Source of the DNA: Escherichia coli
Lineage (GTDB): Bacteria > Pseudomonadota > Gammaproteobacteria > Enterobacterales > Enterobacteriaceae
Reading direction: 5' to 3' (one strand)
Length of the DNA stretch: 64,000 bases
NCBI RefSeq assembly: GCF_003334815.1
Contig: NZ_QOWO01000022.1
How positions within the stretch are numbered: the stretch's first letter is position 1; each line of letters starts with the position of its first letter. The position numbers were made by a program. This document shows, piece by piece, positions 42,001-45,000 of the stretch.

Positions 42001-45000
42001 CGGATACGCAGCCAGGTGTCATGATCCAGAACAGGTGATGGTGTTACCATGCAAGCACAGTGCCCGGTGACGAGCGTATCAAGGAAGCGTTTTGCATCGC
42101 TGGCACTTTCATATTCACCAGTATGGATCAACATCCACCTTTGCCCCAACGCTGATTCGGTGTGAATTGGTTGCGAGAATGCGATTGTGTAAACGTCTTC
42201 AATTGTAACGATACGATTATTATCCGCAGTGGCTGCACGGGAGGATAAGTGTTTCATAAAGGGTCTCATAGCGTTAATTTTGAACAAAAATTATTTGTTC
42301 AGGAGGAGGATATGAAAATACTGTTCGCTTTTGTCATGAACTGGCTGTTTGTTAACGGACAAATCATGACCCGTTCATCAATGTTTGCGGGTAGCTCGCC
42401 TGGTGTGGGGACGCGTTCACCCCGCTGAGCAGCCTGGGCCAGTGCGCGCAGCAACAATACGCTGGCGTGAGATATTGCCAGTTCCCGGGTTTCAGCACGG
42501 CTTTCAAGGTCGAAATCGTGCAGTGTCACAATGAACACTCCGTTTCTGTTTCTGACAGTTGCAGGGTAGGGAACAAAATAAGGGGAAATTTTGCTGGTCT
42601 GTTTACGCCTTGCATCGAGTTTACTGACCAGGTGATATGCCCGGAGATGTGTGTACCGTTTCAACATGTTCAGGGAGCGGTGACCGGAAATGGCTGCAAT
42701 CTCCATAACGTTCAGTGTGCCGAGCTCGAACAAACGGCTGATGGCCTCATGGCGGAGATCGTGAAAATGCAGATTTTCTATTTTCAGATCCAGAAGAGTG
42801 GTACGCCAGGCGCTTTTGAAACCGGACGAGGTGTAACTGAACACATTGCCGTTTATCTGTTGTGGCAGAATTTGCAGGTAGTTACGTGCTTTCCGGGAGA
42901 GTGGGACATCGCGTGGTGAGCCATTTTTCGTTTCAGGAAGATGCGCCACGCCGTGCTGCAAATCGAGGTGTTCCCAGCGTAATGAGAGAATTTCTCCCTG
43001 GCGCATTGCTGTTTCCAGAGCCAGATGGAAGATAACGTAGAGCTGCGGATTTTTGTCCCTGAAATAGCGGGAAAGGCGGCGTTCTTCACCAGAAGTCAGT
43101 CGGCGGTCGCGGCCATTACTGATTTTCGGTTTTCGGACCAGTTCAACAGGATTCATACGGCATGTTCCCCATTCCACACGGGCGATATTGAATAATGATG
43201 ATAAAAGGGCAAGTTCAAGACGGACGGTATTTCCGGTGATTTGACGCCCTGTTCGTGGGTTAATTTGAGCTAAACGCTGATCCCGGTAACTGGCGATATC
43301 AATGGTAGTGATTTCATCCATATAGCGATCGGCCATAGGGTGACGTTTAATCACATTGACGCGATAAAACTCCTGCAGATGACCTTTTTTATGGACGGAA
43401 ACAGTCTTCAGGTATTTGTCCAGTGCCCGGCTGAGGGACATTTTGCGAGTTTTGTTTTTTTGAAACATATCTGCCTTCCACGATAAAAACGGGGAAGGTA
43501 GGAGGCTGGATACAGAAATGCAATACTTTCGTGCCAATCCGGTGTCTGGCGGTCAACTGAAATTAAATTCACAACGCAGACCTATAACATCGGAAAAAAT
43601 ATTCGTAATTTCAGACTTGGTGTCCATGCATATTGTGCATGGACGTATCTTAATGGTTCTCCTTTCGGTGGTTTTCAGCAGGTTTATTCCGATAAAAATA
43701 ATGTCTGGTATGTCAATAATTATGCGTGGGGTAATTATGAGTCAGGTGGAACGATATCTGTTACGTGTCTCAATATACCTGGGGCCGGTATTTAATTAAG
43801 CGTCAGGCAGTAGCCAGCGTGCCAATCCGGTGTCTGGAAGAATAATATCAGCGATGCACTGGTTTTTGATTATTCGGCCTGTTATGACGCAGAAGAAGAC
43901 TCCAGAAAACCGGTTTATGCGAACTGGGGTAGTGGCTCAAACGGCTTTGCCGTCTGTGACGGCAAAGCAGGCTATGGTGCGGCAGGATTCAGAGCGTACA
44001 GAGGTAAACCGGGGTATTCGGGAAGCATGGTCTGGGTCAAAATACGTTGCTGTAAGTTAAAAGTTAATACGCCTTAAATGCATCAGCTTGCTTTGACGAT
44101 GTAGTTAAAGGCAATGTTTTTGGGGCGCATTTCCGTTGTGCTTCCCTGGGCCCAGTAAGGCATACCGCTGTGATGCCCTTTCAGCCATCCCCCACGCTCA
44201 TGATAGACACCGGATTGATCGGCCTGATAACTCAGGAGATGTCTGTTCCGATCTCCATCCAGCCCACGTCCGTTGTCCCAGCCACGGATAAAAACACCGC
44301 GCAAATCCGGCAGCTTACACCCGGGATAAGCACGGGCAAGCTGAGGATACCGGGAACATGAAAATGACTGCCCGTTCATCACCAGGTAGCCTTGTGGAGG
44401 GGTGGCTGATGGCCACGGTATAGGGCTTCCGACAGGGTAGGATTCAAAACCTGCCCACATACCGGATTGGCACGAAAGTATGGCCCCTGTACTGGTGCGG
44501 CCTACAAGTCCGTCCGGTGAACACTTTGTGCCTGCCGTAGCTGTTTTATCAAGCTGTAAATACTCCCCGGTTGAAAGACGACCGTCAGACCGGACTGTAC
44601 CACCACTGACTTTCCCCCCTTTGATTTCCCCGGTGGTTGTGATGCCTTTGCCATTAACCGCGCGTATCCACTGGCTGTCCGTCATGGTGAATCCACCACC
44701 ATGTGTGATATTCATCCATCCCTTATTGTTTCTGGTGATTAGCCAGCCGTCTTCACTCGTAATATCACCTTTCAGTGTGGCACTCTGACCATTGATATTG
44801 CCGGTGTTGTTTATGTTATTCCCGCCCATATTTATTGCAGTATGCATCTGATTCAGTTCAGGACGACCTGCTACCTGAAAACGGTAGAGACGGTCACTTT
44901 CCTGCAGGTCATCACCGCTCATGACGACGGCGATGTGACCTGTCGAACAGGTAAGTCCGTAGTCTCCCGGTTTATCTGTCCAGGCTCCGAATGCGCCTGT

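Follow-up and report, generated by a model that had tools for sequence, protein, structure and literature searches.

The shufflon of the IncI1 plasmid R64, studied by Komano and co-workers, is the prototype of these systems. Each sfx site of a shufflon is built from two 12-bp arms around a 7-bp core. The left arm is variable, the core is invariant and is the site of crossover, and positions 7-9 of the right arm form a 3-bp variable site (PMC9045228, PMC11852207, PMC5350095). In R64, pCT, and TP114, the PilV variants determine recipient specificity in liquid mating (PMC5350095, PMC4083329, PMC9045228), and the rci knockout of pCT lowered transfer to Salmonella and not transfer to E. coli (PMC4083329). 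In the IncI2 shufflons of R721 and TP114, Rci is required to unlock the variants, and these variants set the recipient range in broth (PMC9045228, PMC5430464). A 'unique shufflon' was described in the IncZ plasmids pO111-CRL115 and pO26-CRL125 by Venturini et al. (2013), with one invertible fragment and two C-termini (PMC3817090). The rci of that shufflon shares 92% nucleotide identity with the ICESe4 gene, and in Table S1 of the same paper the annotation is limited to a part of exon X (below) and the end of exon Z (PMC3817090).

We compared these systems with a locus in a 64-kb stretch of E. coli DNA, hereafter the window. The locus is already known, as it was published in 2013 (PMC3817090). 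The plasmids pO111-CRL115 and pO26-CRL125 carry the same element: NC_022992.1 and NC_022996.1 were 99.3% identical to the shufflon region of the window, in the same arrangement (A, below), and share its three sfx sites, exons X and Z, and rci. In pO111-CRL115, exon Y has a 1-nt frameshift, and both Y and the internal sfx site are unannotated, whereas Y is intact in the window. The third exon, Y, is a small correction to the published two-exon description and not a discovery. With this correction, the locus is almost certainly a shufflon of two segments and three exons, carried on a conjugative E. coli plasmid of type IncK2/Z and closing the thin-pilus (type IVb) operon at its 3' end. Every testable defining feature of a shufflon is present, and the parts of the locus are listed in Table 1.

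Table 1. Features of the shufflon locus, with positions in the window, strand, and the sequence elements or evidence for each.
Feature	Position	Strand	Sequence elements or evidence
Prepilin peptidase gene (pilU-like)	45452-46087	-	Annotation of an identical record; immediately upstream of pilV
pilV, whole gene, 454 aa	44083-45447	-	
pilV constant region (Shufflon_N), prepilin-type N-terminus KG/FVLFE	44474-45447	-	Pfam, R64 PilV, RefSeq name
sfx s3, inside pilV, constant/variable boundary	44455-44485	-	19-mer GTGCCAATCCGGTATGTGG at 44455-44473; left arm GGCCATACTTTC, core GTGCCAA, right arm TCCGGTatgTGG
Exon Z, expressed PilV C-terminus, 129 codons from the Cys codon	44083-44472	-	Stop 44083-44085; Pfam Collar, phage tail-fibre homology
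sfx-like sequence inside Z (putative relic), in frame	44199-44217	-	cgatCAA TCCGGTGTCTat, that is, CGATCAA then TCCGGTGTCTAT; encodes D-Q-S-G-V-Y
Silent exon Y, 85 codons + stop, sfx phase	43820-44077	+	Open 43820-44074, stop 44075-44077; open in pilV phase, pilV end in relatives
sfx s2, internal	43807-43837	+	19-mer GTGCCAATCCGGTGTCTGG at 43819-43837; left arm GCAGTAGCCAGC, core GTGCCAA (7 bp), right arm TCCGGTgtcTGG
Silent exon X, 87 codons + stop, sfx phase	43532-43795	+	Open 43532-43792, stop 43793-43795; open in pilV phase, R64 match
sfx s1, rci-proximal	43519-43549	+	19-mer GTGCCAATCCGGTGTCTGG at 43531-43549; left arm TGCAATACTTTC, core GTGCCAA (7 bp), right arm TCCGGTgtcTGG
rci, shufflon-specific tyrosine recombinase, 389 aa	42299-43468	-	R64 Rci identity, Pfam

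The plasmid assignment draws on several lines of evidence. The 3.3-kb shufflon region is 100% identical to that of dozens of public E. coli plasmids typed IncK2/Z, plasmids of 100% identity were typed as MOBP and MPF_I, and the repZ pseudoknot is present in the window. The pil genes follow the order pilO2, pilP, ATPase, T2SS-F, major pilin, transglycosylase, prepilin peptidase, pilV, and rci, with traE/F and further genes downstream; in the annotation of an identical record, the remaining thin-pilus operon lies further upstream of the prepilin peptidase gene. The locus thus lies where a shufflon is expected, at the distal end of the pil operon (type IVb thin pilus) of a conjugative plasmid.

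The original prediction started from a 19-mer found twice on the plus strand and once inverted inside pilV, and its coordinates, counts, and structural claims were all borne out. A scan of the whole 64 kb that allowed up to 3 mismatches found these three sites and no others; chance alone would give 0.01, and none of 100 shuffled sequences reached three. All three, two in plus and one in minus orientation, fit the 13 invariant bases and the terminal TGG, and the 19-mer of s2 is a perfect copy of that of s1. The division into arms and core in Table 1 was taken from PMC9045228 and PMC11852207. The left arm of s1 is mirrored at the end of the pilV constant region, and the two make up a 30-nt inverted repeat with 90% complementarity. 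Across the repeat, pilV is read as G-TGC-CAA-TCC-GGT-xxx-TGG, which gives C-Q-S-G-(M/V)-W; at s3, this hexapeptide is encoded in frame as C326-W331 of PilV and reads C-Q-S-G-M-W.

PilV itself matched Pfam Shufflon_N over residues 34-329 (E = 1e-61 and 5e-45), and the RefSeq name of the gene is shufflon system pilus tip adhesin PilV. The constant region is 42% identical to that of R64 PilV, and the alignment ends exactly at CQSG.W. The expressed C-terminus, predicted at about 124 codons, comprises 123 codons after the repeat, or 129 when counted from the Cys codon. Read in the pilV phase, the two plus-strand frames, predicted to have about 85 codons and to end at 43795 and 44077, are open for 87 (X) and 85 (Y) codons. 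Y and Z are convergent, with their stops 5 nt apart.

Neither silent exon would be recovered by routine gene calling, as had been anticipated. The mechanical ORF list contained only 43518-43799, shifted by +1 against the pilV phase, and the off-frame 43830-44060, and the RefSeq/PGAP annotation of a 100%-identical record is blank over 43469-44082. When Z is the silent exon, PGAP labels it 'tail fiber protein'. The +2 frames of the X and Y DNA contain 10 and 8 stops. We also considered dual coding in X and Y, given 0 and 1 stops in the +1 frame, and rejected it as probably coincidental; in R64, the orthologue of X is interrupted by 4 stops in the +1 frame.

The gene rci, which had been placed next door to the repeats, has its start codon at the first base of the interval proposed for the shufflon. 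Its product shares 75% identity with R64 Rci along 373 aa (residues 6-372 of 389), the C-terminal extension included, and matched Pfam Phage_integrase with E = 1.8e-24. The motifs of the catalytic boxes, including LKRYTH, are intact. The NCBIfam search of Rci returned sub-threshold Xer/integrase matches only. By these comparisons, rci is an intact tyrosine recombinase gene adjoining the shufflon.

A single mechanism would account for this arrangement. Rci would recombine pairs of inverted sfx sites, with strand exchange in the core GTGCCAA next to the right arm TCCGGTnnnTGG. Since s3 lies in pilV, and s1 and s2 lie downstream in the opposite orientation, recombination of s2 with s3 would invert the 0.65-kb Y/Z segment and place exon Y behind the pilV constant region. 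Recombination of s1 with s3 would invert the whole 0.94-kb block and place exon X there; after that event, an inversion between s1 and s2 would flip Y/Z silently. Two nested invertible segments would therefore allow four DNA isomers, of which three were observed, and three PilV tip adhesins, Z, Y, and X. The number of four reachable states follows from the action of Rci on inverted sites.

For the search of public records, the three arrangements other than that of the window were built in silico, and each was searched against PLSDB. Isomer A, [X>][Y> <Z], is the arrangement of the window and expresses Z; isomer B, [X>][Z> <Y], expresses Y; isomers C, [Z> <Y][<X], and D, [Y> <Z][<X], both express X. 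Among about 44 two-segment assemblies in PLSDB, about 37 were in arrangement A, 6 were isomer C, and 1 was isomer B. Isomer D was not found in PLSDB or among 5,426 complete E. coli genomes.

The six isomer-C records come from different studies and hosts and matched the in-silico inversion with 100% identity and 100% coverage. One of them, CP057335.1, agrees with the window at 3399 of 3400 flanking bases, and its 943-bp block from s1 to s3 is the exact reverse complement of that of the window (943/943), giving PilV-X. The annotation of this record joins X to the constant region as the end of pilV and leaves Z as a free-standing 'tail fiber protein'. Additionally, two isomer-C records, CP057335.1 and CP057348.1, agree with the isomer-A records CP057341, CP057343, and CP057346 both in length (119,787 bp) and in source description (pooled sheep faeces). 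Isomer B was represented by CP027379.1, in which the pilV constant region, sfx, and Y are contiguous; this record carries no annotation and contains indels, with the Y frame shifted and rci interrupted by a stop. A diverged single-segment sub-lineage (95-97% identity) lacks exactly 288 bp, corresponding to X and one sfx, and occurs in both orientations, with PilV-Y in NZ_CP129253.1 and PilV-Z in NZ_CP075666.1.

Public records thus include pilV constant regions joined to each of X, Y, and Z, and the segments invert in the plasmid lineage, as seen from isomers A, B, and C and from both single-segment orientations. The expectation that Rci-mediated inversion swaps the C-terminus among at least three tips agrees with the X product (six plasmids, 100%) and the Y product (CP027379.1).

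The alternative arrangements might instead be assembly artefacts across short inverted repeats, as PMC5430464 describes shufflons as hard to assemble and the one isomer-B record is of low quality. However, we regard this as extremely improbable. The repeats, at 19-31 bp, are below any read length, so an assembler would need reads spanning the novel junctions; the six isomer-C records, of different studies and hosts, agree with the inversion to the base, and the diverged single-segment lineage also shows both orientations.

The excess of arrangement A and the failure to find isomer D would also suit a locked or fossil shufflon, its architecture intact, its inversion rate not meaningful, and PilV-Z effectively constitutive. 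This explanation is very unlikely, since the rci product is full-length, retains its catalytic motifs, and does not differ from that of the isomer-C plasmid CP057335.1, whose flanks are otherwise identical, and since arrangements A and C both occur among records of equal length and source description. The skew to A could reflect low inversion rates, selection, or clonal sampling.

An active shufflon of two segments is to be weighed further against a two-state switch, in which only s1 and s3 recombine, one segment inverts, the tips are Z and X, and s2 and the Y frame are debris. Such a switch would be in keeping with PMC3817090, whose text, Fig. 1b legend, and Table S1 give a single invertible fragment with only part of X plus Z annotated, with the frameshift of Y in pO111-CRL115, and with the fact that isomer C, the s1 x s3 product, is by far the commonest alternative arrangement in public records. 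Nevertheless, we consider it highly improbable. The s2 site retains the 19-mer of s1 without change, Y is open over its 85 codons in the sfx phase in the window, and the s2 x s3 product is present in CP027379.1. Y is the expressed pilV end in that record and in NZ_CP129253.1, in the latter as the annotated pilV C-terminus, and it lies under an annotated pilV in two further plasmids. The tblastn search with Y against PLSDB (E <= 1e-3) found 114 plasmids, all with at least 95% identity, and returned no homologue more distant than this. We therefore retain two nested segments and three tips.

The isomer records also bear on the point of exchange. The variable triplet of the right arm was always atg (Met) with Z and gtc (Val) with X and Y in all isomer records examined. 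Exchange in the invariant core (PMC9045228, PMC5350095) predicts that the triplet travels with its exon, as was seen, and this localises strand exchange to the invariant stretch 5' of the triplet. We also considered a crossover spacer made of the last 7 bp of the 19-mer. This spacer predicts heteroduplex or mixed triplets, whereas the triplet always stays with its exon, and PMC9045228 gives the core as GTGCCAA; the candidate was rejected.

The three C-termini differ in their relatives. The original prediction suggested aligning them to the R64 PilV variants, and this comparison was successful for X, which shares 88% identity over 77 aa with one of the seven C-termini of R64 PilV; Y and Z had no counterpart among the seven. 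Pfam gave no match for X or Y, and NCBIfam no family for PilV, X, Y, or Z.

Exon Z matched Pfam Collar (PF07484, E = 6.7e-12) over PilV residues 340-387. In tblastn searches, 95-99% of its length aligned at 42-48% identity with the extreme C-termini of phage tail fibres, and the matches ended at the stop codon of the fibre. These tips belong to P2-like, HK106-like, and Aeromonas phage fibres and lie directly upstream of tfa genes. On this similarity, exon Z is a homologue of phage tail-fibre tips. The tblastn search of the 64-kb window with three Tfa proteins found no tfa gene (best E = 0.47). Because the stop of Z is 5 nt from that of Y and tfa has no match, Z is a relative of fibre tips and not part of a phage fibre module. 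The shufflon-borne relatives of Z in Salmonella, Citrobacter, and Arsenophonus (65-70% identity) form a shorter clade, with two deletions relative to the phage tips.

An sfx-like sequence is also found inside Z. It contains a 13-nt exact copy of s1/s2 sequence (44205-44217), agrees with the right arm at 10 of 12 positions and with the core at 3 of 7, and is located at an indel relative to the phage tail-fibre tips, which is one of the two deletions of the shorter clade. It is probably not a recombination site.

A speculative extension, which we consider unlikely, is that the shufflon serves as an exon-capture platform, that Z is a phage receptor-binding tip recruited onto the pilus adhesin, and that the sfx-like relic is the scar of an illegitimate Rci recombination that built or remodelled the cassette. 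If this were true, direct exchange of receptor-binding modules would take place between conjugative plasmids and phages, at entry points recognisable in fibre genes by sequences resembling the Rci right arm.

The X, Y, and Z tips would bind different surface structures of recipients and thereby set the recipient range in liquid mating; by analogy with R64, pCT, and TP114, we infer that they control recipient specificity, as the original prediction proposed. PilV tip switching sets the bacteria that an I-complex plasmid reaches in liquid, and so it affects the spread of plasmids that carry resistance and virulence in STEC and in commensal E. coli. This locus adds nothing new in kind. The published description of one segment and two tips should read two nested segments and three tips. 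In automated annotation of such plasmids, the silent exons are missing or one of them appears as a 'tail fiber protein', and three or four isomers are to be expected at this shufflon in plasmid comparisons and assemblies.

Compared with R64 (NC_005014), in which the same site-finder recovered the seven sfx sites and the seven C-termini, the window has the gene order pilU, pilV, shufflon, and rci in common, as well as the sfx core and right arm, GTGCCAA-TCCGGTnnnTGG, and the in-frame CQSG.W. Rci and exon X share 75% and 88% identity with their R64 counterparts, and the PilV constant region only 42%. The R64 shufflon has seven sfx sites, four segments, and seven C-termini, against three, two, and three in the window, and the right-arm triplets of the window, gtc and atg, are absent among those seen in R64 (acc, cgg, act, and acg).

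The single-segment shufflons of the Salmonella Typhi pil island and of S. Hadar ICESe4 (cited in PMC3817090) are likewise simple inverted-repeat switches, as is the outer pair s1/s3 of the window, and Collar exons similar to Z (65-70% identity) are common in Salmonella. The window differs by an additional 288-bp unit made of X and one sfx; its close E. coli relatives without X have exactly one segment. The IncI2 shufflons of R721 and TP114 (PMC9045228, PMC5430464) have the same sfx architecture as the window, with the 3-bp variable site at right-arm positions 7-9. They differ in having three or four segments with two convergent exons each (8 variants in TP114) and another plasmid backbone.

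The invertible tail-fibre cassettes of phages (Gin/Cin/Min-type) follow the same logic, with a receptor-binding C-terminus swapped by inversion, and Z is homologous to the swapped domain. In the P2-like NC_041848.1, the neighbourhood of a fibre tip homologous to Z includes a gene for a DNA invertase and a tfa gene in inverted orientation. These cassettes use a serine invertase with its own sites, whereas the window has the tyrosine recombinase Rci, the domain fused to a pilin, and no tfa. Finally, the fusion of PilV with a phage tail collar reported by Milman et al. (2023; PMC9881135) combines Shufflon_N and Collar under inversion control, as in the window. That locus (CP084655.1, 816997-818571) is probably chromosomal and from another organism, and its likeness to the window is one of domain combination (PMC9881135).

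We submitted the silent pilV 3' exon Y against PLSDB by tblastn (E <= 1e-3). The search resulted in 114 matched plasmids, every one with at least 95% identity, and returned no more distant homologue below that level. No Pfam family matched exon Y, and R64, the IncI1 prototype shufflon plasmid, has no counterpart of it. Two plasmids carry a 1-nt frameshift in the exon, early in pO111-CRL115 (locus L006, 1989-2250) and late in CP027379.1 (locus L005, 2400-2653), which may represent either sequencing error or true decay. The frameshift is probably the reason that Y went unreported in the 2013 paper (PMC3817090).

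Both frameshifted copies read through into the other open frame of the window, at 43830..44060. In the two silent exons, X and Y, this +1 frame is nearly stop-free (43518-43799 and 43830-44060, plus strand), with 0 and 1 stops, whereas the +2 frame contains 10 and 8. The R64 orthologue of exon X has four stops in the +1 frame, and for this reason the near-open frames are probably a coincidence of sequence.

Two relatives with 95-97% identity, NZ_CP129253.1 and NZ_CP075666.1, do not harbor exon X. Exactly 288 bp are absent from them, corresponding to the spacing between the rci-proximal sfx site (s1) and the internal one (s2), that is, X plus one sfx; the left arm of s1 was retained and joined to Y or Z. 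The absence is the outcome that direct-repeat recombination between s1 and s2 would be expected to give or, equivalently, the state that would have preceded the insertion of X.

Along its full length, the expressed PilV tip, encoded by exon Z, is homologous to the C-terminal, receptor-binding end of phage tail fibers, namely those of P2-like phages, HK106, and Aeromonas phage 56. No tail-fiber assembly (tfa) gene was detectable in the whole 64-kb window. In the P2-like phage NC_041848.1 (locus L007, 433-3429), a fiber gene with an exon-Z-like tip is followed by tfa, an inverted second tfa, and a DNA invertase gene; this arrangement looks like a serine-invertase tail-fiber switch around the domain found in exon Z. 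Exon Z also contains an in-frame sfx-like relic, located exactly at a deletion of 6-8 aa relative to the phage tail-fiber tips. An unbroken run of 13 nt in the relic is identical to the s1/s2 sequence, and compared with sfx, it matches 10 of 12 positions in the right arm and 3 of 7 in the core. From its peptide, the Z-like exons of Salmonella and Citrobacter keep 'DQS', not 'GVY'.

Elsewhere on the plasmid, three Rfam families, each above its gathering score, were matched (see table). For a 1387-aa ORF, the apparent counterpart in pEc631_1 bears the annotation of an autotransporter outer-membrane beta-barrel protein; a novel serine-protease autotransporter has been mentioned on these plasmids (PMC3817090). 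The apparent pEc631_1 counterpart of a second ORF, of 518 aa, is a shorter protein of 477 aa annotated as a phosphoethanolamine transferase, after which comes an ISKpn26 transposase. At this ORF, the window is offset by about 1.2 kb from pEc631_1, and the plasmid is therefore a relative of pEc631_1 and not the same plasmid.

Coordinates of the features in the window
Feature	Position	Strand	Remark
AgrB antisense RNA	3184-3273	-	Rfam; near dinQ-like toxin gene
ORF, 1387 aa	5189-9352	-	
ORF, 518 aa	11652-13208	+	
sok antitoxin RNA	13722-13878	+	Rfam; beside hok-family gene
Outer sfx pair as inverted repeat	43520-43549 and 44455-44484		30 nt, 90% complementary
Exon Y	43820-44077	+	
PilV tip homologous to phage fibers	44083-44454	-	
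sfx-like relic in exon Z	44199-44217	-	cgatCAA-TCCGGTGTCTat; codes D-Q-S-G-V-Y
repZ regulatory pseudoknot	60385-60535	+	Rfam; I-complex replicon control

The rci-side sequence outside s1, GCAATACTTTC, mirrors the stretch in which the pilV constant region ends, GCCATACTTTC, and this makes the outer sfx pair an inverted repeat of 30 nt. Unlike s1, the rci-proximal sfx of R64 has no such likeness to the end of the pilV constant region.
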